A stretch of DNA of 64,000 nt from Tubulanus polymorphus (lineage: Eukaryota > Animalia > Nemertea), in NCBI RefSeq assembly GCF_964204645.1, contig NC_134027.1, forward strand, positions 14,416,485 through 14,480,484, read 5' to 3'. The translations under genes and the position numbers were made by a program. Below, one piece after another: positions 2,106 to 27,950 of this stretch (the first letter of the stretch is position 1; every line of letters starts with the position of its first letter). Below the pieces are notes generated by a model. It did not search any database, had not been told where the DNA came from, and was given only the letters and a program-made list of their open reading frames with translations.

Positions 2106-3305
2106 TAAAGATCTGCTCTGTCATGTTTTTCACGTCACTTGTCTTATTCATCCAAAATCATCGATATCATCTCCAAAACCAAAGGGACGTTGAACCAGTC
2201 CAACGTCTTTGAGAAATAGACACAGGCCCAATCCCAATGGTTTTGGTAACTTTTGGAGCCTACCAACTTGCCCCGGTATGGTATGTTAATTACTGGGAGT
2301 TTTTCAGACGGGATTGTCTAACTTGTTTTGAGGGATGCTCAGATCCAGGGTTTGAACCCCTTTTCTGACCAGCCCTTTTGAAAATCACACTACGAAAGAT
2401 TCCACCCTACAAATGATCGCAGCCTATGACAAGGTCTGCAGCTTAGTGGTGTCGCGCCTGCCCCGCTCAATGCGATTGGACACTTTTCACAACGATAAAA
2501 TGCCCTTGTCATATGAAGTGAACCCCCACCCCATTTTGCCCAGCCTGGATCTGCCCCTGGGATGCTTATATAGTCACATGTCACATTGCTTGGTTTTCAC
2601 AAGCATTTCTTACTAACTTGCTGGACGACAGATAGGAGATATTTATTTTTTGCTGGAAACTGCTCGTGAGAGTGTGTACATCTGTTATTGTGAAATATGC
2701 TGTCTGGGTGATCATGCACATTAATTTTTTTCTTAATTGAGTTAGCCCCCGGGTTAAAGTTAATACCACAGTCTATAAAACTGGGCCTGTGTGTGTATCA
2801 GTAATCATGGGCGTCGCTAGGGGGGATTCGGTAGTTAAAACGAACCCCCCTTTTTTAATTTTCAAACGTCGACGAACGTCAGCTCATGGTCTGCATTTGC
2901 TAAATTAGCAAAATAAAATCAATACAAGTAATTGGGAAAGTAGGCTTTCATACCAGAGGGCGAGAGGGCGAGACACCACTCATCACCACAAGTAATAATT
3001 CAATTGAGTATGAGACACCACTCATCACAGCTAGGCTCTAGAGAGAACGGACGATTGCTCTGTGGTACACATATACAGTGAGTGCGCGTAACAACAGCTG
3101 CGCGTGGATAGATCGATACAGTGAGTCTCTACTGAGAACGGTTATTAACGCGTGTGTTATTACTGTAGTACAGTGATTGCGTGTCAACTGTGCCCAGATA
3201 AATAGATGCTGTGAGGCTTGGGTGAGAACGGTTAATAGCGTGTTTGTTATATACAGGGAGAAGTAATCCCCACTCATCACCACAAGTAATTTGTTTTCCT
3301 TATAA

Positions 3306-3632
3306 ATGGGAGATAGAAAAGCATTCTTAGCAACAATAAATAACAGAATAAAACCGGCAAAAAAACAATTTGAAATAAAAAAGTTAGTTGATGTTACAAA
3401 AGAAATTGAACATAAAATATTGAAATTAGAAAAGATAAAAACTAAATATGGAGAGAAAGTATCAGCTAATTTAAGCTACTGTAATTTTAGTACATCGCGA
3501 GAATTTAAAGTATTTTTACCTGATAAATGGGTTTCATTGAGTACAGAGGAATTAAAAGATTTAGAAGGATTTAAAATAATCTATCATGGAAAAAATGAAG
3601 ATGGCCATCATGATTTAGAAATTGTTGATTAA
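3306..3632 (+). CDS. Small conserved element protein (possible OB-fold ssDNA-binding protein)
   Basis: Intact ORF after TAAATG in the TIR; homologous to 46034-46379 and 53424-53777 (YG.K, LPD, Y.GKNE.GHH). Confidence 0.7.
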   Translation: MGDRKAFLATINNRIKPAKKQFEIKKLVDVTKEIEHKILKLEKIKTKYGEKVSANLSYCNFSTSREFKVFLPDKWVSLSTEELKDLEGFKIIYHGKNEDGHHDLEIVD

Positions 3633-3765
3633 ATTTAAAAGAAATAAATTAATAAAAATAATGAATATCTAGAATCCGAAATGACTTATCTGGACAATTT
3701 AATTGCTCCGCATAGATAGACAAAAGTAGTGAGATATTCAATTAATATTCAATTAATTGAAAAAA

Positions 3766-4159
3766 TTATTTTTTTTGCTTTTTTTCTAAAATATAAATCC
3801 ATTTTTTATTATCAATTTTGGAATTTCGGAAGTATTTTCATTTTTGATAGCAGTTGTTTCAGAATTATAAATATCATGAATTTTATTTGATTTCTTATAC
3901 CAATTACACCAAATCAAAATGAATACAATTACAAATCCAACTGTAAAATATAGACATTTATCAAATATTCTATTATTAGAAGGAGTAGAAATAACAATAT
4001 TTTCACTATTTTTATTAACATTTTTATTACTTATATTTTCTTTTACAGCTTTTTATATTCTTGTGATTTAATTCCTAATTGCCGAGACCATTCAATTTGT
4101 TTCTGTGATCTCGGTTTTTTCTTCACAGTTAATTCCTTCAATTCTTCCACCTCGCTCAT
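3766..4159 (-). pseudogene. Basic N-terminus, single-TM protein, frameshifted
   Basis: Homolog of 45542-45925 and 62709-63077. Confidence 0.7.
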
Positions 4160-4182
4160 TTATTATAGAAATATTTTTACTT

Positions 4183-4696
4183 TCAATATTTGAAAATGTT
4201 ATAACCCCAGTTTATAATAATGGCATAAATCCACCTAATCGAAATGATAAATATCCAATCCATTTATTTAATTCTGTCATAACTAAATAATCATTTTTTA
4301 AATCGGAATATAATCTATTTTCATCTTGAATTGGCAGCATATAATTACATAATTTACTATAACCTTTTACTACATTTTCTGATATCGCGTCATTAATTCT
4401 AGCTGTTCTCGCGGTTCATAAATCTTAAATAATCTAATAATTTCATCTGATTTCATTGTATCTAATTCATTATAAGTTAAATTTTTACCGATAAAATTTT
4501 TACATTTTCCAGATGCTATTAATATTTCTAATTGATGTTTACAATAAAGATAATATTCATAATTATTATTTGTTGTAACATTATTTAAAGCACCATCATC
4601 TGGAATTAATTTGTTTTCTGTTATTCCTAAATCATCTAAAGTTTTTTCAATTGGAACATCACCATTTTTAGATTTTATTTTCTTTTCACCTACCAT
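4183..4696 (-). pseudogene. Conserved ~170-200-aa element protein, frameshifted
   Basis: Homolog of 45004-45518 and 63070-63672 (YEYYLYCKH.LE.LIA.GK). Confidence 0.75.
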
Positions 4697-4724
4697 TTAT
4701 ATAACAAAAAAATTATTTGTGATG

Positions 4725-5000
4725 TTGCAACTAGAATTCAACTAGAATGTAACTAGAATTCAACTAGATTAACAAGCTAGTTGAAATATTGTTGTTTTTG
4801 TTTATTTCTTGTTAAATCTAGTTGATTTTTGTCCCAACTACTAACAACTAGAATTCAACTAGAATGTAACTAGAATTAAACTAGATTAACAAGCTAGTTA
4901 AAATATTGTTAAATCTAGTTGATTTTTGTTCCAACTACCAATAACTAGAATTCAACTAGAATGTAACTAGAATTCAACTAGATTAACAAGCTAGTTGAAT
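4725..5000. repeat. CTAG-rich hairpin/iteron array (three ~115-120-bp units)
   Basis: Repeated AACTAGAATTC-type 10-11-mers with TTCAACTAG..CTAGTTGAA stems; also present at 44697-44975. Confidence 0.85.
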
Positions 5001-5609
5001 TTAAATAAATTCATATTTAAATGGGTGTTGTAATCTAAATAGTAATTTTGATCTTTTAATATTTTTCAACTTATCCATATATTCATTATGTAAATCATGT
5101 GGAATAATATCATTTTCCTCAAGCGCATTTTTCATCGATTTTCTATCTTTATTGTAGAATAAAACTAGAAATCTAATGTTTTCTCTAAAGTCTTTAACAA
5201 TTGAATTATATTTTTGATTTAAAACCCAAGTTGTTATCCCAAAATGTCTGCCAGAAAAAGCTAAATAGCATAACTCACTTTCTGTAACTTTTGAATCATG
5301 TAAATTTGCGCAATCATCTATGATAAATAATGTATTTGATCCTTTATGAATATCAATTGCTATTTTTATACAATTATCTAAATTTTCTTTCACTGTTTTA
5401 GGATCTAATATAATAAATTTATTATTTCTAGTAATATTTCTATCATAAGTTTGATTAAATTCATATGTTGGACAAAATAATACTATATTATCAAAATAGT
5501 TTTTATAAATAGTTTCTAATAAATCTAATATAAAATAAGTTTTTCCACAATTTATTACACCAGAAATTAACATATTATGAGGCTCAAATATAAATAATTA
5601 CTTATTCAT
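5001..5609 (-). pseudogene. A32/FtsK-like genome-packaging ATPase
   Basis: Walker A ISGVINCGKT, Walker B FIIDD, SGRH motif; early stop after MNK compared with copy 2. Confidence 0.88.
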
Positions 5610-6738
5610 TTATATATTTTTAATTTTACTTGATAATATCCATTCATTGAATTTATCTGGCCATCCAACCCATTTTACTAAAGAATATTTTTTTCTTTTA
5701 ATAGTTTTTGTTTTTAATACTTTTTCAATTTTATATTCTTGTTCTAGATTTTCAGTAGTTAAACTTAATTCTTCTTCGTAAAAGTAGCCATCAACTTCTT
5801 CACCATCTAAATCTTCTAATTTATAGACATATGGTTTTGTTGTTATTACCTTTTTTATTTTATATATTTCCCTAGTAAAATTTCGATCGTATCCTTTATC
5901 AAATATCTTTTTATACTTAGAAATTCTAACATTTTGACCAACTTTAAATTTAGGTTCACCAAAATCATCTACAAGAAATGCTCCATATAAATTATTCCAA
6001 ACAATTTCAGCATTTTCAGGTTTTCTAGCATCAATAGGTTTCATTCCAATAGAAGAATGATAAGAATTATTATATCCTTCTATCAATTTTGGTAAAACAT
6101 CAATCCATTTAAAAGTATTATTTGCTGTAAAATATTTCCACATTCTTGTTCTTAATGTTCTATTAAATCGTTCAACAACTGCTGCTTTTTTATCCGATTT
6201 TGTTGAAAAAGTATTCAATATTATGATTATCTAAGAGTTCATGAACAAGTGAATTATCAAACTCTTTTCCATCATCAAATTGTATTTTTTCTGGTTTTAG
6301 TTTATCATCCGAAAGAAATTTTCTTAAAACATTTGATGTTTGTGCAGTATCTTTTATATAAAGTGGGAAACTCCATACGTAACGACTAAAAATATCAATT
6401 ATATTCAATATCCACCAATAATCATCATTATCTTTCTTAACATTTTTCATATCAATTAAATCTCCTTGCCACTGTTGAACTACATAACTTACCATAGTTT
6501 TACGTGTTTTATATTTTCTAACAATTTTTTTATGTGTTGTGTATGTTGGTTGTTCTAACATAAATTCATTTATATCTTTATATTTAACTAAATTTTGTGG
6601 GATTATCTTATCTAATTTATCTTGTTTTACTTGACGCCATATATTTTTAGTAGAAGAATAAGCAACCGAACTCTCAGGGTTGTAATATAAATTTCTTAAA
6701 TATTGTTCTTTAGTATTAGGAGTTTTTTTACCACCCAT
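5610..6738 (-). pseudogene. rve DDE integrase with C-terminal chromo-like domain, frameshifted
   Basis: WQGDLID, IDIFSRY, QFDDGKEF, VVERFNRTL, KYSLVKWVGWPDKFNEW. Confidence 0.92.
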
Positions 6739-6768
6739 TTATATATCGTTAATTTTAACTTTATATTT

Positions 6769-8017
6769 CTAATATTGAATACTATCTAATTGTGAATTTA
6801 CAATATTTAATTGTGCGTCAGATATAATATAAATGTGGATTTTAAAATTTTTGTCTCCTCTTTTCTTTGCCATGAATAATTGTATTCCATCTTTTGTGTT
6901 CTGTAGTTTTATCCCAGAACCATGTAATGAATTATCCTCTGTTGTTCTAAAATCTAACTATAATGCATATTTATTGCCGGTATAATAATCAATTTGATTA
7001 ATATTACAATTTTCAAATGATTTTACTTTTTCATTCATGAAATGTTTTCTAATTTCTGGCCACTGATCTATCATTCTCATTCCTTGACAAAATATTTTAT
7101 TTGCTATTCCTTCGATAGTTATTTCTACTTTTGTTATTTCAGGATTATAATAATTATCTACCTTTATTGCACCATTAGAATATGTTGCAATGGTAAAAAA
7201 TATTAATATACCTTTAAATAGATCTTCTTGGGAAGTTAATATTCTCATTAATTATTTCATCATTTGCATTAATAGTTACAGTTTTAAATTTATCAATATA
7301 ATCATATAATAATGAAAATGCTTGATTGTATTGAGTTTGAATTGTGCTAGCAATATTTTCATTAGTTACTGTGTCATATTCTAAACATATATTTGATAAT
7401 TTATAACCCATATCTTTAACAACGCTAGATAATACAATTTCATTTACAGGAGCAAATGTTATTTCGAATATAACGTCTTCTTGAATTGCGTATTTATATA
7501 AAGGTGCATTATTATTTATTAATTCAAAGTCTAATGGAATTTTATATTTGCTTCCATAAATCTTTTTTATCAAATTATCTACAGCATTAGTTACTACTGC
7601 ATTATTGGCTTCAGATCTTAATTTATTATGGTTTTCCGATTGAATACCCTGAAATATCATATTATTTCTATTTTCTTTAGTTAACCATAAATCTTTATAA
7701 TGCATAAATAAATTATAATCATCTAATGAGAAAACTGTTTCTGGACCAATCTTTATAGTTAATTTTTTAATCAAATATCTCCCAACATTATCAACAACAT
7801 AATTATTATCATGACCAATTACTTTTATATCAGCTGATAAATAAATACTATTTGGAACATAAAAAGTATTTTGTGTTAATCTAGGAATTCTAACATATAA
7901 AGTTTCATCGGGATTAATATTTGAAGGATTATGTTTAATTATATGATGTGATCTTTCTGCTTTAATAGCATTAGATATTCTAGAAATCTTAGAAGGACTT
8001 ATATAACTCCCACTCAT
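6769..8017 (-). pseudogene. Major capsid protein (double jelly-roll, hexon-like), frameshifted
   Basis: ~415 codons, beta-rich (NPSNINPDETLYVRIPRL, YKDLWLT, IPLDFEL, NICLEYD); conserved in all three copies. Confidence 0.8.
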
Positions 8018-9498
8018 TTATTTAACAAAAAAATTAATTATTAATTTTTTATTATTTTTTTCTTGATATCTTTTTGATATCATATTCACTAACCCAAAAA
8101 TAATAGCACTTACAACTGTAATTAAAAATAAAATAATATGTTCAGCAGCAAAGTTAAGAATATTCCCAGCAGATTTCAATATCAAACCAACAATTGATGC
8201 AATAACTCCTGGCAATGCTGCAGCAGATTTTTTAGATAGTTCCCATAAATATTTTGCTAATTTCTTTAAACCATCTTTAACTTTATCTTGTATAGAATTA
8301 TTATCATTCGGGGGTTTATCCGGTTTATTTGGAGTAGGAGTAGATTTTAAAGCATTTGATATTGCTAAACCAATTGTTGTAAATAACATAGTTACAGCTG
8401 TTAGAATTGAAAGAATTGTGATACCTTCTAATTTAAATAATAATTTTATTCTATCTTTAAATGATATTTCAGAATTTGGTTTTATCAACAAATCTTTAAA
8501 AATAACTTTTAATCTATTAATATTATAATCATATGATTTTAATAATAATTTAATTTCTTCTTTCTGTACTTCTAAATTATCTTTAAAATTATTAATTTCT
8601 TTTTCTAAACGTAATTCTTTTGCCTATATTCTATTTCATCAATTACTTGATGATCTAAATCAGACTTAAATTGTTCTATTTCTTTATTATTATCAGTTAA
8701 TTCTTTTTCTAAAGTTCTAATTTTAAAATCTCTTATACTTTTATCATGCGCAATTTTATCAAATGCAAGTCTTATACTTTTAATTTTTCTAATTGCTTCA
8801 ACAGAAAATATATTATTTAAATCTTCTAATTGTTGATCTGTTGCATCAATTAATCCATTCGGTAAAAGTTTTTCAATTGGAACTTTATTTGATTTAAATT
8901 TACTAGTTTTGGAAGTTATATTCTGTTCAGAAGTTGTTTCTGTTTCTGATTTCTTTTTGATTATTTCAAATAATTCATTAATTCTTTGTTTAAATACGTC
9001 TATATTATCATCTATTTCTTTTTGTGTAACATCAGTTATTTCATTACTATTAATTATTATTTTAATTCTATCTGGTTTTAATTTTTTTAAAGTTGATTTT
9101 GCTATTATTTTTTTTTCTTTTTTATAAGTGATATCAATATAATAATCATCTTTCAAATGATAATAACATTTACCATTATCTAAAAATTTTAATTGATGTG
9201 CTAAAAGTCCAACGTCTTCATCATTTATATTAAGTTTAGAATTTTCAATTATACGTTCTAATTAAGGTATTTTGTTTAAATTATTAAAATTTAGTTTTAC
9301 TAAATCTGGGTCTAAATTTTCAGGATTTAATTGTGATTCTGCATTTTTAATATAATCAGGCATATTTAAATTATTATTATATTCTGGCTCATTACCGTCA
9401 TTAAAACTTGTTTCACTAAAATCAGGTTGTTGTTCATCAGTTATACCAGGTTCATCTAAAGGATCCATTCCAATATCTTCTCCACCTTCTACATCCAT
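8018..9498 (-). pseudogene. Large protein with acidic N-terminus, variable coiled-coil centre and multi-TM C-terminus (broken into 3 ORFs)
   Basis: Ends match 57419-59047 (MDPLDEPGITDEQQPDFSETS; LFKLEGITILSILTAV..AALPG). Confidence 0.7.
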
Positions 9499-9514
9499 TT
9501 ATATAATAAAAAAA

Positions 9515-10903
9515 TTAAAATTTAAAACATAATATTCCTCCTATAACAATTCCTATACAAGTTAAAGCTAATTTAGTATTTTCATGGAATTTATTATCAT
9601 TATCAGTTTTAATTATATCATGTTGAATATTATCAGTTTTTATATTTTCTGATGTATTGTAATCTTTTATTTTAGAATCATTATGCAATTTAATATTTTT
9701 AGTTTTAGTTTCTGTTGATTGAATATGTTTTTTATTTTTTTCACCTTCCATTAATTTTGGAGCAGTAATAATCTTTTTATTTATATCATTTAATCCAAAT
9801 GAATTATTTATTGTTGCAGTTTTGATTAGATTATTGTAACCAATTATGTTTCCCATCTTTAATACTAAATCATTAGAAATAATAAATAGATTAGGGCCTA
9901 TACAATAATTTAATCTAATATGTGATTTATCTAAATAATTTTGATATCTTACAATGTTTTCTGGAATCGATCTATTTTTATCATTATGAATAGAATCTTC
10001 AAATAATACTTTGAATTGTTTCTGTGTATCAAATCATGTATTTAAATTTCCAATTATTGGGGATCTTGTTTCAACTTGCGCACCTAAAATACATATCAAA
10101 TAAGTTCTAATAGATTGATTTATTCTTTGTATACCTGATTTTGTAAAACCTTCATTATTTTCTAAAATGAAATAAACCCAACCATTATTGTTTTCTTGTT
10201 TTAAATTCTCATAAAATGTCGGTAATGTATTGAAATTTAATGTTTCTAAATCCTTAAATTCTATTTTACCATAACCTAATTTATTACTATAGATATTATA
10301 AAAACTATTAGATTGTATGGGAAGTGCACAATATTCTGCAATCTTTTTAGGGCAAGGAAGTGATCTTATTGTTCCAATTTTTGTTCTAAAATCAGAATTA
10401 TTTATATCTATATTAAATTCATTACAAATTTTATAAAACTTTGATAAATTAATATTATTATCTAATCCTTTAAAATACCTAGATCCTGGTAAAGCGCACT
10501 CTAATTCATTTAATATTATTCTGATTTAAAATTATGTATGAAATCTAAATAAACTTTGAATTAATTTATATTTAGAATTATTCAAATGATCATTCCAACT
10601 AATTCCACAACCTGTTGTTGCACAATAAACAGCAAAATTTAATTGGTTCTGCCAATACTTCATATTAGATTTTAATGACCATTGTTTTTCATCTTTCAAT
10701 TTTTTAAAATTAATTTAATATACATGAAATATATTTTCCATCTTTGCATTAAAATTATTAGTTTCAGTAACATAAATTTCTAAATTGGTTAATGAATCTA
10801 AAACTTCATTTCCATATGTAATATCTTTATTAAAATCTATTGCTGGAATATTATATTTAATTGATTTATTATATTGGAAAGCTTTTGGAAAACTATCTAC
10901 CAT
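9515..10903 (-). pseudogene. ~440-aa element protein with C-terminal TM, disrupted
   Basis: Homolog of intact 56081-57403. Confidence 0.8.
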
Positions 10904-11354
10904 TTATTTAATTAAACAATTAATAATTTATTAATTCTTTTAATTATTTATCTTGTTCTTCAACTGTTATATGACCATTTAAACTTATTATATAATCTAG
11001 TGTATTCTTCAATTTATTAATTTCTTTTATATTAGTTTTAATTTTTTCTTTATTACTTTTTATATTTTATTTTGAACTTATACCAGTTAAATCACTTGAA
11101 CTTAATCCTAATACACCAATTGATATAGCTAAAGGTATTAATGGACTGAATATTGCTAGAAATGTTATTACAGAACTAATTGTAACCGAACCACTGATAA
11201 TAAGATAAAATATAATTTTACTTTTTAAATATTTTTTCTTTTTTATCTTTAAGTCACTTTCAAATTCTAATATTTGTTTTTCTAAATATGTTTTTAATTT
11301 AGTTTTATGTATATCATGAGGAATAATATCAATATTATCAACTTTATCTTCCAT
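10904..11354 (-). pseudogene. Two-TM small protein
   Basis: Homolog of 55631-56080. Confidence 0.7.
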
Positions 11355-11375
11355 TTATTTAGAAAAAAAAAATTA

Positions 11376-11798
11376 CTAATTTGTAAACTTATAAGCAACA
11401 AACATAACAATAACTGTTCCACCTAAAATCCAAATTATTTCATATTTCTGTTGTTCATTACTTGGGGTATAATAATCTGATAATTTAGGTTTGTATAGAT
11501 GTAATTTTTCTTTATTTGTTACTGCGTTATATAAACTTATTGCATCATCAACCGATTCAAAATCTCTATGTGAAATCTTCTGATCATATAATTCTTTATT
11601 GATGTAATCCATATAGTTTTGTCGTTTTTCTCTATATTCTTCCGCTGCTTTATTGTATTTCTCTAATGCTAAGTTATGTCTTCTTTGTTCTCCTAATGAA
11701 CTATTTTTATCAATATGCTTAAATAAATAACCGCCACCAGTAAATGCTAAAGCGTTAACAATTGCCGATCCTATAATAGTTATAATTGCAGAAGCCAT
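11376..11798 (-). CDS. 140-aa protein with N- and C-terminal hydrophobic segments
   Basis: Intact; near-identical to 55188-55610. Confidence 0.8.
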   Translation of the reverse strand: MASAIITIIGSAIVNALAFTGGGYLFKHIDKNSSLGEQRRHNLALEKYNKAAEEYREKRQNYMDYINKELYDQKISHRDFESVDDAISLYNAVTNKEKLHLYKPKLSDYYTPSNEQQKYEIIWILGGTVIVMFVAYKFTN

Positions 11799-11822
11799 TT
11801 ATTTAGCAAAAAAATTATGCAT

Positions 11823-12044
11823 TCATATGGGAGGAATATATTTTTGTTTTTCTAAATAATCAATAGTTAAATTAGATAAAGTAAATTCTAATGTTAATTT
11901 TAAGATATCATTTATATCAAATCTATCAACATTAACACTTCCCATTTTAAATACTTTTTTTAATACCATTGAATAACCAACAGTTCCAACTGATAGTAAT
12001 GCGCCATTATATAATCCAGTTATTATCCACTTATTATCACTCAT
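11823..12044 (-). CDS. 73-aa hydrophobic protein
   Basis: Intact; near-identical to 54942-55163. Confidence 0.8.
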   Translation of the reverse strand: MSDNKWIITGLYNGALLSVGTVGYSMVLKKVFKMGSVNVDRFDINDILKLTLEFTLSNLTIDYLEKQKYIPPI

Positions 12045-12399
12045 TTATTTATCAAAAAAATTACTATCATCAAAATATTTAGTTATCTTAGTGATGATTA
12101 ATTCAACATTTATTTCATTACTAGTTTCATTTGTATATATTTCAATTATTATTTTTTTAATATCATCGATGATAAAATCTTCATCTTATTCATAAAATCT
12201 TAAAGATTCTCTAATTAAATTAGTAATTTTCTACATTAAAAGTTTCTTTATGTATTGTTTTTTCATACTCAAATGTTGTTTCATTAGAAAATGCAATATT
12301 TTTGATATGTGTAATTACATCATTAATGTTAAATTTCATTTCTTTCTCACGTTTGAAATCAAATCCAAAACATATACTCGGTCCAACAGTTATATTCAT
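12045..12399 (-). pseudogene. 118-aa element protein, disrupted
   Basis: DNA homolog of 54585-54941. Confidence 0.7.
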
Positions 12400-12415
12400 T
12401 TATATAATGAAAAAA

Positions 12416-13170
12416 TTACTCTTTACATCTTATAACTAATTCATAAATTACAGGAAAGTTATTCAAATCAATTAAGTATCCATTGTGATTTCTAATTTCT
12501 AATCTAAAATTATTAAAATGTGGAATACAAGGTTTGAAATCACATTCAGTTAAATTATAATTTATTTGAGTTCCAAATTGTTTAACATTTTTAATGGTAA
12601 AATATTTAGTATACTAGAATTGCAAGTTTTATCTTAAGTTGCTTCGAATGTTTTTGTAGGATCAATTAAATTACAATAAATATAGAAGTGCGTAAAAGGT
12701 ATTATATTTGGCGTAGTATCAACATTTGAATAAACTTTATTTGGATTAACTCCTAGCATTTTAGCTAATGGTTTTCTTACTATGAATTTATATTGTTCAT
12801 TAGTTAACTTTATTCTTATTTTATTAGTACTATCAATTTTATTAAATTTAATGTTAAACCCATTAGATTCACCCACTTTTAACCGAGCTCTTCTATTAAT
12901 TTCTTGAGATAATGTTTCTAAATTATATAATCCTGGTCTTAGAAATAGATGATACCATTTACCCATATTTTTATCATGAATCATAAACAATCTATGATCA
13001 AAACTTTTATCCGATATATTGTAAAAAGAATTACATAAACTTATATTAACTAATTTTAAATCAACACAATTCTTAAATTCTCTATCTAATTGTATTAGTA
13101 AATTATGAGATTTATAATTTGTAAGTTTTCTAGAATCAACAAATATTCTGTATTCTTTTAATTCTACCAT
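12416..13170 (-). pseudogene. Minor capsid protein (penton-like single jelly-roll)
   Basis: NSFYNI..PGLY..FYIYCNLI..IDLNNFP motifs; homolog at 53813-54568. Confidence 0.7.
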
Positions 13171-13238
13171 TATTTATAACATAAAAAAATTACCGCTCAT
13201 CACTAAAAATTAATTTTAATAAAATTTTTCCTTAATAA

Positions 13239-14571
13239 ATGGATGAGAAGATAGCATGTGAAATTTGTGGTGAACTTCTAAGAAAAAGTAATATGGCTCG
13301 ACACATGAAAAAACATGATGAAAATTATAAACCCCCTAAACTAAACTGCCCAAATCGTAATAAATTATTCTCAAGAAATTATGTTAAAAAACATTCAGAG
13401 AAGTGTAAAATTAATGGCGCAACGGCTAATGTTGATAGTAATGAAAGTAATAGTAATTCTGTTGAAGTTGAACCTGAAATTATTTGGAAAAGACCTTTCT
13501 TATTCTATGACAAGGATAATATAAAAGATCATTTCTGCGAGCCTTGTCGAATAAAATATAACCCTGAAAATATAGAAGATTGGGAGAATCATCAATTTCG
13601 TAAAGTACATATAGATGAAATTTCTAATAAATTTGAAACTGAATTCAATGAAAGAAAAAATAGTTTATTAGAAAAAATAAAATATGAGAAAACGTTACCA
13701 GATAATAAAGAAACAGTTGAAAAGTTCAAAAAAACAATATAATGAATCAACAAGAAAAACATATTATTGTAAATATTGTAAATTGATTATTACAACAAGT
13801 AATTCAAATCTACATAATAGAACAATAAAACATAAAGAAAACGTAAGAAAATACCAGGAGCTTAATGAAGATCTATTACCAATAAATTATAAACGAAAAT
13901 GTCCACAATGTAGTTATGCGACCTTAAGACAAGAAGGTACTGTGTTATTTTGTGTTGATTGTGGATGGCAAAAGAATTTATGGGGTGAAGAAAAAACTAG
14001 AAATTTTCTCATAGATCCAAAATTAAATTATCTAGATGAAATTTTTAAAATATTTTCTATAGAAGATCATACACCAGAATATATGCAATGGCTTGAAAAA
14101 ATGAAAATAATAGAAAATAAAAATGGTGAAATAACTAAAAAAGATATTATAAAAACAATTATTCCGTCAACATTTAACACAAAACAAAAGAAAATGTATT
14201 TATATTTATTATTTAACGATTATTATGAAAAACCTAAATTAACAGAAGAAGATATGGAAAATATAAAAAAAATATTCAAACAAATATTAATGTATCATTT
14301 GGAAAATAGAATAACAGATTCAATTAATTATGAATTCTTTTTAAATAAGATTGTAAATTATTTAAACATCGATATTATAATTCCATTTGACGAATTAACA
14401 AACAAAAAGAAACAATGAGAGCGAGATGAAATGTGGAACAAGATAGAACTTTATTTAAATGAGAAAAATGAAATGGAAGAAGAACCTAAACAAATTATAC
14501 AAGAACAATTAAATGAAAATGAAGAAGCCAATAGTGATTTCGAGTATGATGATATTGATGTTATGTTTTAA
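13239..14571 (+). pseudogene. Multi-Zn-finger protein fused to a poxvirus VLTF-3 (A2L)-like domain (one frameshift near 13740, one stop at 14416)
   Basis: C2H2-type fingers, then CPQC-x13-CVDC, NF...KL..L and IFKQILMYHLEN..SINYEFFLNKI..W; frame continues past the TGA to a TAA at 14569-14571. Confidence 0.65.
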
Positions 14572-15023
14572 TGGCCATAAGGTAATGTTTTTATACCATC
14601 ATCTGAAATATGTCTTTGATCATCAAATGGATTTAAACTAGTTTTTTTAACTTCATTAATGTACATCTCATGATCTTCTGATCTTAAACAATTCATTTTA
14701 TGTTTCATTACAATTGAGTAATATAAACACTTTATATAATCTTGAAATTCTATGTGTTTATCAGCCACATGTTTTGTTATTCCTTTTACCTTTTTAGCTT
14801 CATGATCTTTTGTTCTATAACTATACATTTTACTTCTTATCCCAACAAATTCAATCATTTCATCACCCCCTAGTTCATCTTTAAATTTACCAGGAATCTT
14901 TTTATTATCATTGCTAAATAGTTCATGATCTTTGGGATAATTGCTAAAATCAAAATGATGTTTTAATGTTTTTAAGTCTTTTGTTATGTCATTTGTCTTG
15001 ATTTTTAGTATGTGGGCGTCAGT

Positions 15024-16083
15024 ATTTTTGGCTATTAATGGAAATCCACAGTTAAATGTATCATCTTCAGTTGATAAATCATAAACATAATCTGTTGGGT
15101 TATATATTTCAAATAAATCTTTAACTTCTTCTGTTAACTCATTTTCTACATGGCTTAAATTAAAGCAATTTGGTTTAGATATAATCAATCCAATATTCAT
15201 ATTAAAACCTAATGAATTGCATAATATATTCAATCCTGATATAGCAACTTTTCCTTTTTGAGCTAAAGATATTGTTTTGCGATTTTTGAAACTTTTAGTA
15301 CCATCTGCTGCGTAGAATCCAATGAAGAACCATTTTCTTAAATTATTTTTTACATTTAATACATAATCTGGAACTATCTTTTCTTTAGTTGAAGTATTAC
15401 TTTTCACTATTGTATGAATATAGAATTCGCCATTATATTTTATAGCAAAATCTTTAGGATTATTCACATGTATTCTATAACATTGCGATAATTTCATAAC
15501 ATCTATGATTTTGAATGTTTTATGTGAATAAACTTCTTCACAGAATTTCTTTATTCTTTCTAATAATTTCAAATCTTGATTGCATAAATACCAGCAATAT
15601 TGAGTGCGATTAACATAATTATACACACCTGCTGAACCATCACCCATGAAAAATCCTTTGATAAATTATTCTTTTTCTTCTAATGTTTCGGGTTCTATAT
15701 TATAAATATTATCAATTATTTCATCAAATGACATAGGATTCATTCTTTGGAAAAATCTTTTATGTAATAATTCATCTCCAATTCTTATATCAGTTGGTTT
15801 TATTTCATCACCATTTCGTTTAATTAAACTATGATCTTCTGTAACATCTACAAATCCTAATTTAGTTCTAACTCTATAGATTTTCTTATTTGTTTTATGT
15901 CTAATAATATTCTCTTTTCCATCCATTTCTTGTCCAAACATCCATTAATCCATTTATTTGTATTAATTCTTTTTCACCATATGAAATATAACATTCATTT
16001 TGTTTTGGAATTATTTCTGAAATTCTTCTTATCAATATTTTATCATTACATTTTAATAATATTGGGGTGTCAGCTGTTACAGA
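15024..16083 (-). mobile_element. Intein with LAGLIDADG homing endonuclease in pPolB motif C
   Basis: YFD|SVTADTPILL (block A), VDVTEDHSL (block B), FIKGFFMGDG and FFIGFYAADG (LAGLIDADG), YVYDLSTE (block F), LIAKN|TD (block G, +1 Thr); 1060 nt with one frameshift and one stop. Confidence 0.93.
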
Positions 16084-16658
16084 ATCAAAATATAATATTT
16101 CAATATGCTTTTCCCCAATAAGTGGTTGTAAAACATTATAATAAAAATCATACATTAATAATTTTGATACTTCTAAAACAGTTGAACCAATAAATATAGG
16201 TTTATTAAATTTCATTGACGTTCTTTTTAATTTAACTGCTGTTAAATAATCTTCAAATCTTTTATTTCCTAAATGTCTAGGACTTGATTGTAAATGTCTT
16301 AATCTTTCAGAATTATTTACTAATTCAATATCATTTCTATTTCTAATATTTTAACATGTTTTACCATAAAAACTGTTATTCATTAATTTGAATAAATCTT
16401 TTTCAAAATCTGTTTTTGATATTGTTCTCTGTTGAGTATTAAAATCTATATATTTTTCTAACCACTTCGATTGATTAAATTCAATATATCTATGTACTTT
16501 CTTTAATTTCATTCCTTGTTTTAGATACAATTTTAACATTCTGTAATGAACAATATAATTGTATTTATTATTTTGAGTAAGTATTAATTTTTCTGTAAAA
16601 ACATGATCTTTCGGTTTTATTTTCTTTTGGTATTCACTTAAATAACTATCATCTACAC

Positions 16659-17706
16659 TTAAATGTTCTGGGCAATAAGGTAAGTTTCTTGTTTTAAACT
16701 TTATATTTTCAGGATATTCTAAATCAACTACAAAGAAATGACCAATTGGTGCTTCATCTTTTAAACTCGCAATTGCGCTTTCCCAATCAGTTTTATCACC
16801 ATTTTCAACTTCTGTTAATATAAAATTTTTATATGGTTGAGGTTGCATCATTGCCTAACCATATAAATTATTGGCGTCAATATATAATAATTTATATTCA
16901 TCATTTGCTTTAAAATACCTTTACTTCTTATCCCAACAAATTCAATCATTTCATCACCCCCTAGTTCATCTTTAAATTTACCAGGAATCTTTTTATTATC
17001 ATTGCTAAATAGTTCATGATCTTTGGGATAATTGCTAAAATCAAAATGATGTTTTAATGTTTTTAAGTCTTTTGTTATGTCATTTGTCTTGATTTTTAGT
17101 ATGTGGGCGTCAGTATTTTTGGCTATTAATGGAAATCCACAGTTAAATGTATCATCTTCAGTTGATAAATCATAAACATAATCTGTTGGGTTATATATTT
17201 CAAATAAATCTTTAACTTCTTCTGTTAACTCATTTTCTACATGGCTTAAATTAAAGCAATTTGGTTTAGATTTAATCAATCCAATATTCATATTAAAACC
17301 TAACGAATTGCATAATATATTCAATCCTGATATAGCAACTTTTCCTTTTTGAGCTAAAGATATTGTTTTGCGATTTTTGAAACTTTTAGTACCATCTGCT
17401 GCGTAGAATCCAATGAAGAACCATTTTCTTAAATTATTTTTTATCTGCAGTTAAATGTTCTGGGCAATAAGGTAAGTTTCTTGTTTTAAACTTTATATTT
17501 TCAGGATATTCTAAATCAACTACAAAGAAATAACCAATTGGTGCTTCATCTTTTAAACTCGCAATTGCGCTTTCCCAATCAGTTTTATCACCATTTTCAA
17601 CTTCTGTTAATATAAAATTTTTATATGGTTGCATCATTGCCCAACCATATAAATTATTGGCGTCAATATATAATAATTTATATTCATCATTTGCTTTAAA
17701 ATACCT
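16659..17706. repeat. Internal segmental duplications in pPolB
   Basis: 16920-17443 duplicates 14829-15352; 17451-17706 duplicates 16659-16920. Confidence 0.85.
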
Positions 17707-17986
17707 ATCTCCCATAACACCACTAATTCCACCTCTAATTGTTTTTTCAAATAATAAAACCATATCTGGTTCTTTTAATAAATCTAATTCTACATTTGTA
17801 TATTTTAAACCACATTGCCAGGTTAAACCAGGACTAGAGTAGCAATAACAAGGATCAACATAATTCCCTTCTTTCTAAGTATATTACTTCATGCCTTGCC
17901 AAACGCTAATTATTTACTCACTCACCAATTTACTCAATTAACCTGTCCTCCTCTGTATATTTACCCCTGTTTTTAGTCTATTTCTC

Positions 17987-18028
17987 ACACCTGACGATGA
18001 TCTCTAGGGTGAGATCGAAACCTCGTGT
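17987..18028 (+). ncRNA. Minimal hammerhead ribozyme (Penelope-like element type)
   Basis: ACAC-CTGACGA-T-GATCTC-TAGGGT-GAGATC-GAAA-CC-TC-GTGT: core, 6-bp stem II and 4-bp stem I; AATAAA downstream. Confidence 0.7.
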
Positions 18029-19961
18029 CTTTTATATATTTTAGATTTAATAAATAAATTCTGGTTTTTAAATTCTTTTAATCTGTAAATAGTGGGATTT
18101 TATCTTATTATCCGTTCACCACGTTTGAGTGTGGTCATCGTTCTATCTAGTTGTGAGTATTCATTATTACATATTTATACAAAATCACATAAAATTTTGA
18201 TAATTGACAGACATTTTTTTATCTACTTGCAGCATACTGACAGAAGACTACAAACAGAGTGGGAACCAATAAGACTTATCACGCTGTTAACTCTTCTTCT
18301 GAACCGTATCTGAACCGTATCGTGTGATTATAAGACCCTAGGGTGGGACTCCCTTTTGATGTGTTGATTCAACTAAACCACGGTTAACTCGACACTTTGG
18401 GGATTGTGATAAAAGTGACGACTTATCCAGATGACTACTTACACTTGGCAGATTTGATTATAAATACATATTAGAAATACAGATTGTGACTTGAGTATTT
18501 ATGTTTCAAACATCACTTTGACTTATCATATGAGCACTTAACCAAATTTGACTTTGGATTGATATCCTTGTACATCTCTGGAGTTATAAACATAATGATT
18601 ATCAAACTGTAATCTTGGTTGATGCTTTATTATTACGTTTATAATTAATAATATGATTAATTTGTGGACTGGTATGATAATGATGAACTTTTAATTAGTA
18701 TCTGGTTAACGTTAAAATATGAGGCTATGTAGCTGGTAGATGTGTATATAGCAGTATACAGCATGTATCATCCAACTGCCTTATGTATAGATTGAATATG
18801 TGATTGAAAAATGAAAATAAAGCTTGAATAATAATAAAGTCTTTGTATGGAAATTTTCGTTTTATCTATCTGATTCCAATGTGGATTTTGTTTCTAAGGA
18901 AATGGAGATTGCAGGTGATCCCAGCCCTTCAAACATTCGATATTTATTACATTTGATCTCGCATAACAATTTTATACGATGGAATATTATCAAAATGAAA
19001 CTACGAAGTTTCGGCTGTTGACTCATCGGCGAAAACTCCAGACCAGACTTGCAGGATATAGAGGCCATTTTGTCCCATACCATATAAATTCGTCTACAGA
19101 CCTACGGTAATCAATGCAGGTACTAGAGCTGCCAGTAGCCGATGCCTGAATGTGGCCCTGCTTTAAAATCATTGAATTTCCCAAAATACTTCCATCTAAC
19201 AATTTTAATAAAAAAATGCACATTTTTATTACATATATTAATAAATATTTGTCAAAAACATATTGTGTAATTTTTATCTAATTATGATTATTGACGTCAG
19301 GGGAATTTTTGTGAACTGAGTTCAGGTTTGAAATTTCGAAAAGATAAAAATTGTAGAGAATTTACTCAACCAAAAAGTTCAAACAGACCTTTGGCTGGCC
19401 CATCAAGTACCGGTGCAATAAAATGCAACGTTTAGCAACACTTACTTGTCGGGATCACTGGGGATAAGGCCATAAGGGTTATCGCTGTAAACATGGCAGA
19501 AAAGATTCATGCGTCTTTTAAATGAATTTGAAAAAAGCGCCTAGATCGTGATAAACCCCACTCGATATAATCGTGATCGACTTGAAGAAATGACAAGTTG
19601 TTTTTGGAGAAATAAAAAGATATTGCATTTGCAGCATATTGAACATAAACAAATTGACAATTTTTATGGTTTTATGAGAGTGTTGGTTATTCAAATAAAA
19701 TGGTCACTTGGAAATACAATGAAAGATCACCAAATTTTTGGAAGAAAGTACCCTTTTCAAAGCGCTCTTTCGAATTGTGCACTGGCAAAACTAGGCGCTG
19801 GGAACCTCGATCCTGGCGACATGGTAGGGAGGTCAAGTAGAATTGTTGCTAAAAGGTGTTTTTTATGATCTTTAGCAATGTGAAGACATTTCTATGGTAT
19901 AAGCAGCAATTTGTTCTTTTTAGTGCACATTCATAAATGAAACGGATCCACCTGTTCTATG

Positions 19962-20135
19962 CACAGGGGCTCGTATCAGAGTTATAGGTAATGAAAAAAC
20001 GATAATCTGTTAATCCAATGTATATAGTATAAATAAAATAATATAATATATAAAGTTATTTTATATATACTATATACATTGCATTAACAGATTATCGTTT
20101 TTACATTACCTACAACTCTGATACGAGCCCCTGTG
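19962..20135. mobile_element. Hairpin MITE with 8-bp TSD (P/hAT-like)
   Basis: ~70-bp inverted arms beginning CACAGGGGCTCGTATCAGAG; TSD GTTCTATG at 19954-19961 and 20136-20143. Confidence 0.9.
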
Positions 20136-20214
20136 GTTCTATGGTTTGAATTAAGCTACTAGCAATTATCTGAATTTCAGATAATCGCTCGTAGATTCGT
20201 AGAAGTACGTGAAT

Positions 20215-21180
20215 AATATGAATAAATTGACCTTAAAATTGTATCTACTTGCACTCCAAATCAAAATGTAGGGGGTTACCTACTTTGAAGAATTGGGGTT
20301 TTTCACCGAGGGGACATTACCTATAGGGGATCTTTAACTAGGTGATTTTTTTACCCCTAACCCTTTTAATTAACTAGTGATTTAAAGAATTGTAGACTGA
20401 GTTTAGATAACCGAATTAAATACATCGATTCGTAATATCAATATATAGTCGCCGAGTAATTATTCGTTATCACCTGGTACGCTTTTCGTGATCATATTGT
20501 GTACGTACGTAATTGAAGGAATTACGGGGTCATCTAGATTTAATAAGGTTCAATGTATAATGGCTTGTAAGCTCTGGTTAGCGGTAAAAATCCCCTAGGT
20601 AAAAATCCCCAATTCTTCAGAGTAGGTAAAAATCCCCCTCCTTTTGAATGAAGTGATACAATTTAAGGTCAATTAATTCGGATATATCCAATTTATTTAT
20701 ATTTTACCGTGGAAAACCATATGGATATCACGAGCGTACAAACTATAGTATACACTAATTGCATTAAAACTTACTACAAATTAACAGTTCATTAATGCCA
20801 AATTAGTACTTAAAGTTATAGCAGTTAATGAAAGGGTTCATCGCGCATTTAAAATTTATCGTACTAGCTTGAATCACAGTTCAAAAATATTCCATTCCAG
20901 TTCGAATTGTACGATATAAAAAAATAATAAGTTCATTATTCTTATTAATTCTAACAATTTATCTTGTTCTAAGAGTTATCTTAAGAATTCACCCCGACGA
21001 AAGGTTTCATTGCGCAGTTCAAACATATTTCGATCTCATTGCAAATGAATAAAATTTCAGAAACATTTTGCTTTGAAATGTTCTTGAACATCATTGAAAA
21101 GTGGGGAATTTTACCTACTTTGAATATTTGGGGATTTTTACCTAGATGATTTTTACAGAGGGGGCTTTTAACTACAACCA
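20215..21180. repeat. Nested degenerate MITE-like inverted repeats (GGTAAAAATCCCC motif family)
   Basis: Related motifs in alternating orientation at ~20260-20360, 20580-20680 and 21100-21180. Confidence 0.5.
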
Positions 21181-21690
21181 TTAGCTCTTTGCCTATGCTT
21201 ACTTTGAATTACGACAAATTTCAATCGAACTGTTTTCCGCTTGCTGCTTTCAAGTTTTTAATTTCTCACCAATATCCTTTGTTTCGTCCTTGTTTAAATA
21301 CATCTCTCTTGCATTCTTTATTCTGTACTCAGTAACTCAGTATGCCTGATGAGAATACAGGTTATAATGTCAGAAAAAATGAGGTAAAAATACCACGGCG
21401 AACGTATGGCGAATGCCTTGGCTATTTTTCTACAGTCAAGTAGTAATGGCTTGCCAATGTTATAAATGACAGTGGTAAAAGTGCCAGAATGACGATACCG
21501 GTATCCGTTTATTCATATTCAAAATTATAACAACAAACACATGATTTTAAGCCAGTGCTTTCAACGAAACATTTGATTCGAATAACTAACAAACTAGTGT
21601 ATCAAATCTCCATGCACTATTCGGTTATATGTTAATTTGATATTTCATGTATAAATTACATAAAGACTAGCTCATTGTGGGTATTCTTTC

Positions 21691-22409
21691 GGGTCCTGCT
21701 AAAGTACGAAACTACGAAATTACGAAATATGGAGCGAAATTACGAAACGAAACGAAATTACGAAATTGCGAAACTACGAAATTAAGAAACGATGTGATGA
21801 TACGACTAATTCGATGACGACTTATGCGGGGTTGAATGTAGCAGAAAGGAAAGGCAAGCGCTTCACGCGACACCGAGCTCGTAACCGCGATAGGATTATC
21901 CCGTTCTTGGACACGGGCCGACATATCTGAACCTGTCTAGTATCGATCATTTTGCTCAAAAAAAGTAATGTACAGGGTAGATTAGCGACCGGTCGGGTCA
22001 ACTTTTGGGCTCCTCAGCAGAGGAGAAACGAGGTATCAATTTTTTAGCCTAAACACTGCAGGATATAAGGCACACTTCGTTCCCTAACCCGTAATTTATT
22101 AATCGCTACCTTCCAGTTGTATATGAGCATGCGCAGATCATTCTCCCTGATGGCATCGCTAAACTCAGTCGCGGCACGGAACCCTGCCACACTAGACCGG
22201 GTGCGCATGTTTAAGCCAGCTCCACGAATCCGCTGCTATAGCGCAAAAAATTACAAAGTTTTCGTTTCGTATTGCATTTTATACTTTGGCAGGACCCGCG
22301 AAAAAATGACCATTTCGTTTCGTAGTTTAGCATTTCGTATAGTATTTCGTTTCGTACTTTAGCATTTCTTAATTTCGTAATTTCGTAGTTTCGTACTTTA
22401 GAAGTACCC
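21691..22409. mobile_element. Non-autonomous MULE/Foldback-like DNA transposon with 9-bp TSD
   Basis: GGGT..CTAAAGTACGAAACTACGAAATTACGAAA TIRs built of tandem TACGAAA units; TSD TATTCTTTC at 21682-21690 and 22410-22418. Confidence 0.88.
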
Positions 22410-24742
22410 TATTCTTTCGAATATACATACAACGTGCATAGATATTTTTTATCTCCTACGCCTATAAGCGTAGCTAGGGCAATCTTTGAAAATTGTGAAA
22501 TTTAAGTTATTCACTTATCCCCAACAAATCGCACAGCTTTTCCTCGAATTTCTAGATGATTATTCCTAGTGGGGATGCTCTTGAAACGATAGTTCTTTTG
22601 GCAGTCTATACACCATGTTCCATTTGCTTATTGCCAAGTTCCAGATCCAGAACGTATTTTTTACAACAAACATGAGAGAACTTAATTGACAGGAATCGTA
22701 TAGAGGAATTGCAACGATCTGTATGCAATCTTTGCTCGTCAGCAACGTACGTAGCCTTGTTACAAAGAATGGCATAAAAACAATTGAAACAAAACTTAAT
22801 TAATACAAAATACCTTTATTTATGTCATTCATAAATGCACTACAAATGATTCGTCTAGAAAATATAAGTAGTGTAATTCAAAAAATAACTAAATTGCTAT
22901 GCATACTGGAAAGACGACCGTGCTTGTGAAACGTAGCATGCATAGTGTGAGCATATTACAAATATTAAGCAACACTTAATTTCACATATATTCTTTATTG
23001 TAAATGCATGTGTCAATCTGATAATATCAGTTTTTCATCGATGCGAAGTTTAGATGGCAGACAGAAAGGCAGACTTTATTTTACTTTGATTATTTATCGG
23101 CAAACACGTTGTTTTGTCTCAATTTTCAGGAAAATCAGTCGAATTTAAACTGTGAATTACTGTGAGCACCTGTGTATCTACCATCTTGCTCAATTGATAT
23201 TTATCAGTATTATCATTAAACAAACTTATCAATTATAACAATCTGGCGGTTTGACGATACACTCAAACAAGGTAGTAATAGCGTGCAGTAATCGACGAGT
23301 AATAGCGATCGATTGCACGAATAGTTTGTATTTAATTAAATATTAGGCCATCTGACACCAGCATAGCCCAAGGGTAGATATATAGTCGCAGTGACTCAGA
23401 AAGTTATTCAGATTTTAAAACTCTCGATACATATACACATGAATTTTATATATCTTACTCTTTCTATTCGCTGATATTTACAGGTAAGTATTTTAAGTAT
23501 TTAATCTATTTCATTCAGCCAAATTTAGTGTAAGCATTTGACTAGGCCCAAGTTTTCATACTACGCATATCAAATATTTTGATTTCATGCATCTAAGCCT
23601 AAATGAATTAGACTTTTTATTGAGTTATATGATATGTAGACTAGTTAATTTCAGATCTATTCGAAAACGGTGCTAGATATGTAGTTATAAGTATGAACTA
23701 ATTTAATATGTTATTGAGCATTTTGACATTTGATAAAAATAGGATAAAAGATATGGCCAGTACATCTATGCATGTGTCTGAATTATGCTCTATTATCATA
23801 TCAAATATATCAGTAAACATACAAATGCATATTACATCTAAACGACCACCAAATTAATATAATAACCATATGTATAATCTCTTTTAAAATGAACATGTCA
23901 ATTTTACAAGATTCTAATTCTACATCCCTCTGTGTTGACATTAAAAAATATATACGCAGGAATATTTTATACATGTACCTCTTTCTATCCACTGATATTT
24001 AGTTCTCTCGAAGCTTATAAAAGACAAAACACAACGGACGTTTGTTTTGTTAAAAATCACATAAACATTTGATAAAATTTTCCTAACCCAATACCTACTC
24101 TACGTACATTATTTGAATGTTTTCGTTTTCACCAAACAATGAAAAAGAATATGAAAAACATCAGTGATATGTGATTGTCAGAACAGTTCAACATACTTAA
24201 TATACCAATACAAAATTACTTTGTTTCAGTATCAATGAATTATAATATACAACGTACATTGCCACGTATACGAAAAATATTTTGCTCTATAGAAGAGACT
24301 GTAAAACACAAAGTCAATTACGAAAAGCATGGATGGAACATACACTTCAATCATGTAACAGTGGAACCTCGTAATAACGACTATAGATATGGCAATTGAT
24401 CAGCTTTCAGTGTCTTCGTCACTTTCACTTCCCAAAAGAGCATCGGCCAAGCGTTCTTCTGCTAGTTCATGTGATGTTTGATGGACCTCCATATATATCT
24501 TTATCAGTGTTTCTGGCGACAAAACTCGAAACACGTAATTAATCCATGTACTGAAAATATAATTCAAAAGTTTGGTGACGTCGGGGCTAACAAAGTGTTA
24601 AGAGACAACACGCACATTCGGTGAAATGCTTGGCAATCAGACAATTTCAATATTCAATGCCCCCTGTGAACAAATTAAGGAATCAATGACATTAAAAATG
24701 CAGTACATACAAAATATAACAATATATGCAGGTACATCTACA

Positions 24743-25040
24743 TCCTCCTACTGCAGGGATTCGAACCCGATGGTATCGCTTCACTCAGCCACACGCCACG
24801 AACCCCTGCCCGACTTGACCGGGTGCGCAGCTTTGCCACGCGAAAACTTACGGCACCAATCAGATTGCTTGTTGTAGAATCGCGGAGGTAAATTTCACGG
24901 AACAACTAAGAATCGGAAAACCCGGTATCTGATTTGCTAATAATGTCATCATCTAAGCTGCGCGTGTAGCTGCGCACTCGGTCTAGTGTGGCAGGGTTTT
25001 GTGCTGATGCCATCGGGTACGAACCCTGCCGGGGGAGGAT
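24743..25040. mobile_element. ~290-bp MITE family member
   Basis: GCAGGG..TTCG..CCCGATGG inverted ends; related to 46851-47146 and a fragment at ~22145-22210. Confidence 0.55.

Positions 25041-26733: not shown

Positions 26734-26939
<206 letters not shown>

Positions 26940-27460: not shown

Positions 27461-27950
<490 letters not shown>

Follow-up and report, generated by a model that had tools for sequence, protein, structure and literature searches.

Whether the Polintons of multicellular hosts need a helper, and how they are expressed, is the question at stake here; the replication strategy of polintoviruses is counted among the key unknowns (PMC11131425). That a Polinton can carry a VLTF3 gene is already known in kind. 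A homologue was described in coral polintoviruses (PMC11131425, citing Krupovic and Koonin 2016 for an earlier report), VLTF3 appears in figure legends of PMC8502044, bioRxiv 2022.07.28.501842 and bioRxiv 2025.10.09.676808, and about 30% of two PLV clusters possess it (bioRxiv 2026.06.19.733378). The polintoviruses, MELD viruses and PLVs concerned (PMC11131425, PMC8502044, bioRxiv 2026.06.19.733378, bioRxiv 2022.07.28.501842) share with our locus an accessory VLTF3-like gene in a small Preplasmiviricota element. Compared by description only, the passages on VLTF3 in these sources mention neither an affinity to poxviruses nor a fusion with Zn fingers and analyse no promoters, and the main text of PMC11131425 does not contain the word ‘promoter’. 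Together with the gene presented below, these reports contradict the statement, in the relevant passage of PMC11253617, that no homologues are detectable outside Nucleocytoviricota. For the gene itself, first noticed in an initial annotation made from the letters of this DNA, they leave no novelty: alone and in a broken copy, it adds just one more example of a kind already described.

Vaccinia late promoters overlap the start codon with TAAAT, in most cases with a G next, and have a conserved T at the tenth base upstream, and intermediate promoters carry TAAA with an AT-rich stretch 15–19 bases upstream (PMC11980589). The gene of vaccinia VLTF-3, A2L, is itself an intermediate gene (PMC11980589; PMC5294985, section 6). 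Small Polinton-like elements in entomopoxvirus occlusion bodies provide a precedent for proposed poxvirus parasites, but they measure ~12 kb and have no described RVE integrase, whereas our element has RVE and pPolB; the main text of that source mentions neither promoter, transcription, VLTF nor motif (PMC11296320). EMALEs, which need helper-type late promoters, provide a second precedent (bioRxiv 2025.10.09.676808). Mavirus and EMALE virophages, with their CroV-like late promoters, resemble our case as integrated elements whose genes bear a helper-type late signal; their helper is mimivirid and their dependence was shown by experiment, whereas our element has a poxvirus-type signal and its own late factor. 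Gene transfer from poxvirus relatives to parabasalid Polintons has also been described (bioRxiv 2024.03.23.586382), and the accessible parts of PMC12945077, bioRxiv 2026.10.13.758929 and PMC11464507 hold nothing decisive on mechanism. In the literature searched (few subscription papers, no supplements) we found neither the affinity to A2 nor the fusion with fingers nor, most importantly, the poxvirus-type start signal seen here throughout the element; in that same literature no link of Polintons with TAAAT or with poxvirus late promoters, nor of VLTF3 with TFIIB, appeared among the matches listed, as judged by titles and abstract openings. We read the locus as a virophage-like Polinton transcribed by the polymerase of a poxvirus-type helper, with an A2-like factor that likely redirects rather than poisons this machinery, and give this reading a probability of roughly 0.5.

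In the whole stretch analysed, 64 kb of eukaryotic DNA (the window), three decayed Polinton/Maverick copies with 22–25% GC (element GC ~23%) lie in host sequence of 33–40% GC. Their main features are the following.

~2927–17860, minus strand: copy 1, a 5′-truncated Polinton
5001–6741, minus strand: RVE integrase/chromodomain and A32-type ATPase (Pfam rve E 1.9e-9, Pox_A32 E 2.5e-10)
7214–8033, minus strand: major capsid gene, first piece (Pfam Capsid_N E 0.0023), with T7-run and ATAAATG start
9262–12415, minus strand: small-gene block, with starts 9498, 10903, 11354, 11798, 12044 and 12399 all ATAAATG
12634–13170, minus strand: divergent neighbour of the VLTF3-like gene, which from its motif pattern we take to be a minor capsid gene (Pfam DUF5901 E 0.019 only), with T-run and TAAATA start
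14568–17859, minus strand: pPolB of copy 1, 5′-truncated and broken, with an intein at 15024–16083
~38091–46760: copy 2, an internally deleted Polinton
38158–38178, plus strand: T-run and ATAAATG heading a pPolB frame, inside the terminal repeat of copy 2
49263 onward: copy 3, a mosaic Polinton
53401–53777, plus strand: slot gene of copy 3 (ORF 53424–53777, 117 aa), with TTTAATAAAA core and TAAAATG start

The components expected of a Polinton (pPolB, RVE integrase, A32 ATPase, major capsid, terminal repeats) are all present; rve and Pox_A32 pass the Pfam cut-offs, and the matches to Capsid_N and DNA_pol_B_2 are weak (E 0.002). A terminal repeat is common to positions 2927 and 38091 and recurs inverted near 46700. 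Copy 3 (49263–64000) is a mosaic relative to the other copies, with 72–76% identity in the left arm, ~77% in the right arm and ~90% in the centre; it also has an inverted integrase/ATPase block, a different terminal repeat and a PolB start without TAAATG.

Between the putative minor capsid gene and pPolB of copy 1 lies the gene under study, whose parts are as follows.

13239–14571, plus strand: VLTF3-like gene, three pieces of one gene broken by a frameshift and an in-frame stop
13215–13241, plus strand: start region, with the A-rich core TTTAATAAAA (13215–13224), a short T-run and TAAATG over the start codon
13239–13742, plus strand: ORF1, N-terminal piece (Pfam zf-C2H2 E 0.006), aligning with the N-terminus of the relative P0002
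13257–13316, 13347–13406 and 13536–13610, plus strand: fingers of ORF1, respectively C2H2, a degenerate second, and U1/matrin-type
13681–14418, plus strand: ORF2, in a shifted frame, with U1-type finger, C4 ribbon and helical VLTF-3 core, ending at the in-frame stop
13768–13833, plus strand: U1-type finger of ORF2 (Pfam zf-U1 E 2.4e-7)
13900–13962, plus strand: zinc ribbon C-x2-C-x13-C-x2-C, with poxvirus A2 spacing in the alignment, modelled as a beta ribbon
13993–14478, plus strand: predicted helical VLTF-3 core of cyclin/TFIIB-like arrangement, read with X at the stop and including the NY motif and Trp (model pLDDT 81.7)
14419–14571, plus strand: tail after the in-frame stop, with the last helix and an acidic end; its stop overlaps that of pPolB (TTAA, 14568–14571)

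The ribbon and the later motifs of the initial annotation all lie in frame 13681 (+), the ribbon beginning at 13900, so that the earlier figure of ~13891 was three codons early. KTRNFLIDPKLNYL occupies 13993–14034 and the IKKIFKQ...NYEFFLNKI block 14263–14352, both in this frame, and the motifs that had been named for vaccinia A2 are present in fetched poxvirus A2 sequences. The later Trp exists as well (14434–14436), though behind the in-frame stop at 14416–14418. The gene is indeed antisense to both neighbours, and the stop overlap with pPolB is as annotated. Its absence from the corresponding slot of copy 3 was also correctly seen: the 117-aa gene found there is unrelated, falls in unnamed, mostly arthropod ESM Atlas clusters, and gives a weak lead (0.85) to phi29-type SSB.

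Three relatives were recovered by a search of 1.84 billion representatives (E 2e-38, 1e-17 and 2.5e-4). P0002 (697 aa) spans all three pieces and P0003 (446 aa) spans fingers, core and last helix; thus 13239–14571 is one broken gene, with the frame change falling within 13681–13742. ORF2 is 44–47% identical to P0002 and P0005. In L267, the contig of P0002, the intact gene stands tail-to-tail with an intact 1336-aa pPolB, a layout as in copy 1, whose pPolB is 79–84% identical to this intact PolB. Relatives at 28–50% identity retain all four cysteines of the ribbon as well as the NY motif and the Trp. Compact relatives of 281 aa (P0004 and P0007), with ribbon and core and without fingers, were observed on contigs of 6–13 kb. 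In sequencing run X5, which has the same species label, most reads lack the two breaks (148 of 176 and 251 of 262), hence the breaks are particular to this copy or to few copies. The copy 1 gene is a pseudogene, and its relatives are intact. Furthermore, 340 reads of this run depart from the reference at 13171, which shows that a common variant carries other sequence in the slot; by eye, their flank resembles that of copy 3.

Ahead of the ribbon stand four fingers, of which two are classical and two U1/matrin-like. The fourth is 55% identical over 27 aa (E 3e-5) to the N-terminal finger of the L267 pPolB, a resemblance suggesting that the fusion was assembled from the element's own parts. Other searches added little: word-index protein searches gave no new relatives (0 of 379 and 0 of 605 candidates), a profile search returned P0003 and P0004 only among 3618, and IMG/VR scans with the VLTF3-like gene, P0002, the relatives' alignment and the ATPase yielded zero loci. 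Related loci were likewise zero in a first metagenome scan and a GTDB scan, as were PolB matches in phage records, where one weak VLTF3-domain match (E 6e-3) was dismissed. PDB sequence searches returned generic Zn-finger or chance matches only.

We regard the observation as real and the VLTF-3 call as right with near certainty. The initial annotation had named a Pox_VLTF3 search and a structure prediction as checks, and the two diverged. Pfam Pox_VLTF3 (PF04947) matched the last 59 aa of ORF2 only, at 17.1 bits (E 0.0047), below its gathering cut-off of 25 and compared with 67–162 bits for true poxvirus A2; two relatives scanned as domains gave no Pox_VLTF3 match at E 1, and the Pfam A2L ribbon model did not match the VLTF3-like gene. 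A match well beyond the Zn ribbon was nevertheless obtained by other means. Aligned with HHalign, a four-member profile reached 97.7% (E 2.4e-12) against 22 distinct poxvirus A2 over 199 columns covering ribbon and core, compared with 39% over 75 columns against 79 Imitervirales VLTF3. These comparison sequences came from IMG/VR, and for the poxvirus set the search bait was a motif of the VLTF3-like gene itself; with that motif masked the ranking was kept (16.7–28.8 bits for poxvirus A2, −4.8 to 12.1 for Imitervirales). Reciprocally, a poxvirus A2 profile scored 32.4 bits on the domain against 8.3 for the best of 500 shuffles, and it ranked the three VLTF3-like ORFs highest (30.3, 23.2 and 21.8 bits; next 7.8) among 1348 six-frame segments taken from the window and the relatives L267 and L268. 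Among 30 ESM Atlas matches 27 were Pox_VLTF3, the top score being 0.95 with a recognition value below the tool's mark; compact VLTF3 clusters of ~200 aa also occur there in Preplasmiviricota. An AlphaFold2 model (X at the stop, pLDDT 81.7) retrieved from BFVD cowpox VLTF-3 at rank 1 (E 2.5e-6, TM 0.65) and two entomopoxvirus VLTF-3 at ranks 2 and 3 (ranks 1–3 spanning E 2.5e-6 to 4.9e-5 and TM 0.65–0.54), most of the next 27 named rows being VLTF3 as well. The confident model is limited to ribbon and core and excludes the fingers; P0003 modelled without alignment had a pLDDT of 35.6.

Profile, fold and language-model searches thus agree on the VLTF-3-like identity and the Zn-finger fusion, and the marks of the family (C4 ribbon before a helical core, NY motif, terminal Trp) are all found. 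The domain is homologous to poxvirus A2, which by these sequence comparisons is the closest among the groups tested. With poxvirus VLTF-3 (vaccinia A2L; PF04947 and PF08792) it shares the compact layout from ribbon to NY motif to Trp, collinear over the 199 columns, and the best fold match. It differs in four extra N-terminal fingers, an acidic tail, an identity of only ~21–27% and a score under the Pfam cut-off, and also in being Polinton-encoded, in having no A1 homologue or RNA polymerase found beside it, and in being broken in this copy.

Capture from a poxvirus, which the initial annotation had implied, did not find support. In an unrooted tree of 24 rows from three groups, with long branches, the four relatives come together (92/73) outside the 12 poxvirus rows (91/91), so that the family is not nested among them; a Polinton context is shown for two of these four rows, the window and P0002. 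Near-duplicates were dropped from the poxvirus loci (26 of 38) and from the Imitervirales sequences (71 of 79), and the tree has no entomopoxvirus, asfarvirus, egovirus or PLV rows. With this make-up it does not point to any donor.

For A2, a fold resembling that of TFIIB has been proposed. In our protein, the prediction of a zinc ribbon at the N-terminus and of a helical, cyclin-like domain behind it suggests a TFIIB-like layout, with scores that are not decisive: TFIIB was best in the VIA fold search (Z 7.3, rmsd 3.6, 90 residues), tied with cyclins and ORC6/Rb-type folds and within the range that the tool calls common, and first in Foldseek PDB (E 0.18), while the TFIIB ribbon matched by profile at E 1.6. 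Our protein differs from TFIIB in its single cyclin-like repeat and its lack of a significant sequence match. This fold is also the starting point of a helper-free alternative: a nuclear TFIIB-like VLTF-3, made first from an A-rich promoter, would work with host RNA polymerase II as an autonomous late switch, activating genes with T-run and TAAATG, and copies lacking it would be complemented in trans. Phycodnaviruses without RNA polymerase, which use host Pol II, keep VLTF-3 (PMC12085832), and the distinct core before the VLTF3 gene is kept in three relatives, as such a switch would have it. Were this so, a minimal system of VLTF-3 with host Pol II would help to define the role of a core giant-virus factor. 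We consider this alternative rather unlikely.

We picked 20 gene starts by hand after the motif had been seen; since PolB and the putative minor capsid each enter twice, they represent 18 distinct genes. Of these 20 starts, 17 have TAA before ATG, against a background of 7.5% of all ATG. An A directly precedes TAAATG in all 17, and a T stands ten bases before TAAAT in 16 of them against 25 of 72 control sites (p 1.2e-5). Both sequence features of vaccinia late promoters, a start codon overlapped by TAAAT(G) and the T ten bases upstream, are hence found. The integrase start of copy 1 and the ATPase start of copy 2 (44093) are TAAATG with T at −10, and the intact L267 PolB has the same T-run and ATAAATG type of start as pPolB of copy 2. 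Three starts are exceptions: that of PolB in copy 3, that of gene 53424 in the slot, which reads TAAAATG, and that of copy 1's putative minor capsid, which reads TAAATA. Runs of five T before TAAATG number 11, 7 and 5 in the three copies, compared with shuffle means of 1.4, 0.7 and 1.0; in the small-gene block, five of six starts have an upstream run of at least five T. The motif also places a T at −3, a poor Kozak context.

An unbiased count of all ORFs of at least 100 aa, fragments and orthologous copies included, gave TAAATG starts for 18/46 (39%) in the window, a proportion close to that of 38 poxvirus loci (174/434, 40%) and above those of 80 Imitervirales loci (11/209) and 28 other viral loci (11/147), and for 3/3 in L267 and L268. 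T at −10 accompanied 15/18 of these starts in the window and 84/174 in the poxvirus loci, the latter mixing promoter classes. No entomopoxvirus and no other Polinton family is among these comparators, so TAAATG starts may be common to Polintons needing no helper. Inside the genes of L267, the early terminator T5NT and AATAAA occurred about as often as expected, which is uninformative. Separately, 28 single IMG/VR matches to the long start motif were read as chance, since none headed an ORF of at least 60 aa and none was related to the window.

The motif might also be a packing or translation feature of an AT-rich genome, a stop abutting the next start, with the VLTF3-like gene as an unrelated passenger. 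At ~23% GC the element lends itself to this, and 4 of the 17 TAA do end an in-frame stretch of at least 60 codons; the other 13, however, end none. The remaining stops are not used likewise: in the three copies 1 of 24 TGAATG and none of 46 TAGATG sites open an ORF of at least 60 aa (together 1/70), whereas 24 of 114 TAAATG sites do, against none of 12 in host DNA at 18000–38000. The enrichment of T at −10 is equally foreign to packing, and the 30 most AT-rich Imitervirales loci (<28% GC) reach only 5/69 (7%). Packing is therefore highly doubtful in our judgement, and we keep to the poxvirus-type start signal.

A second signal accompanies some of these genes. The TTTAATAAAA core lies 9–11 bases before TAAA in the window's VLTF3 gene and its counterparts in L267 and L268 (11 nt before TAAATG, also in the two relatives) and in genes 53424 and 60343, and by sequence it fits the intermediate promoter class. 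At 53424 and 60343 it could instead be the polyadenylation signal of the upstream gene; at the VLTF3 gene of the window it cannot, because the upstream neighbour points away. Gene 60343–60978 (plus strand), behind the capsid gene of copy 3, was further seen to encode a U1-type finger and seven 24-nt tandem repeats.

For an initiator positioned over the start codon the polymerase matters. Such an initiator suits Pol II poorly: it leaves no 5′ UTR, and were the motif a TATA box instead, the spacing at which Pol II starts would put the RNA start inside the ORF. It suits a poxvirus polymerase, because slippage of the latter supplies a 5′ poly(A) leader (PMC4542343). Moreover, PolB, integrase and VLTF3 genes carry TAAATG themselves, so that no clearly host-read early class is seen; a Pol II switch is poorly served by VLTF3 and PolB genes that bear the late signal, and also by the common slot variant without the VLTF3 gene. 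The window contains no A1 homologue (best E 0.27), and no RNA polymerase subunit occurs among 42 ORFs scanned with Pfam. Taken together, the missing A1 and polymerase, the position of the initiator and the lack of a host-read early class favour a poxvirus-type helper. Late promoters of ASFV also initiate at a TATA-like element (PMC5294985), hence the helper could be any member of Pokkesviricetes.

In the poxvirus-type reading, the TAAATG motif would be the transcription start, read by a Pokkesviricetes polymerase in its cytoplasmic factory, in the way that virophages exploit late promoters of the helper. The VLTF3 gene, which has the distinct A-rich core, would be made first, like A2L as an intermediate gene. 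The predicted ribbon and cyclin-like core may then dock the polymerase in the manner of TFIIB, and the fingers, apparently from the element's own repertoire, may tether the factor to Polinton nucleic acid. The VLTF3 gene would be carried by one subfamily of the Polinton, its product likely redirecting helper machinery to Polinton promoters.

The initial annotation had left it open whether the factor redirects or poisons late transcription of a helper virus. The late-type starts of the element's own genes favour the helper link and redirection. Poisoning would make the fusion a dominant-negative A2 that blocks late transcription and protects the host, a role for which an accessory, antisense gene in an exchangeable slot, with extra fingers and an A2 identity as low as ~21–27%, might seem suited; but the structural genes of the element, with late-type starts, would be silenced too, and the ribbon cysteines, NY motif and Trp are kept as expected of a working factor. 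We hold this version to be improbable, and redirection likelier, as the Polinton genes themselves would rely on the late machinery.

Extended to the lineage, this reading becomes more tentative, slightly short of an even chance: an integrase-bearing Polinton lineage would be a virophage of poxvirus-type viruses, its whole genome written in a poxvirus intermediate/late promoter grammar, and one subfamily would use its own zinc-finger-armed A2 to pull the late polymerase of the helper onto its DNA. If true, this would be an endogenous, inducible poxvirus parasite entering the transcription cascade of its helper with a factor of its own. The genome-wide start signal and the A2-like factor make the question of a helper testable, and the signal is a possible sequence signature from which to predict the helper that a given Polinton depends on.

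Several further observations concern the copies and their surroundings. The intein of copy 1 pPolB (15024–16083, minus strand; LAGLIDADG endonuclease E 3e-6, Intein_splicing E 0.014) interrupts the catalytic YxDTDS motif. It is missing from the PolB of copy 3 and of L267, and reads of run X5 join ~15013 to 16084, thus intein-free copies coexist. In the same gene a 524-nt segment, comprising the intein end and a C-terminal part of PolB, is duplicated (16920–17443 versus 14829–15352, 99.6%). In copies 1 and 2 the interval from the ATPase to the following gene (4683–4993 and 44700–45003) contains three repeats of 97–117 nt with CTAG-rich units, and a tandem array of ~148 nt (47981–49262) adjoins the terminal repeat of copy 3. 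Host DNA holds a decayed integrase fragment at 30917–31553 (minus strand), which we take from its motif pattern to be of retroelement type. Finally, inverted arms at 1–194 and 2718–2912, 99% identical, surround 2.5 kb to the left of copy 1 and probably mark a separate DNA transposon.
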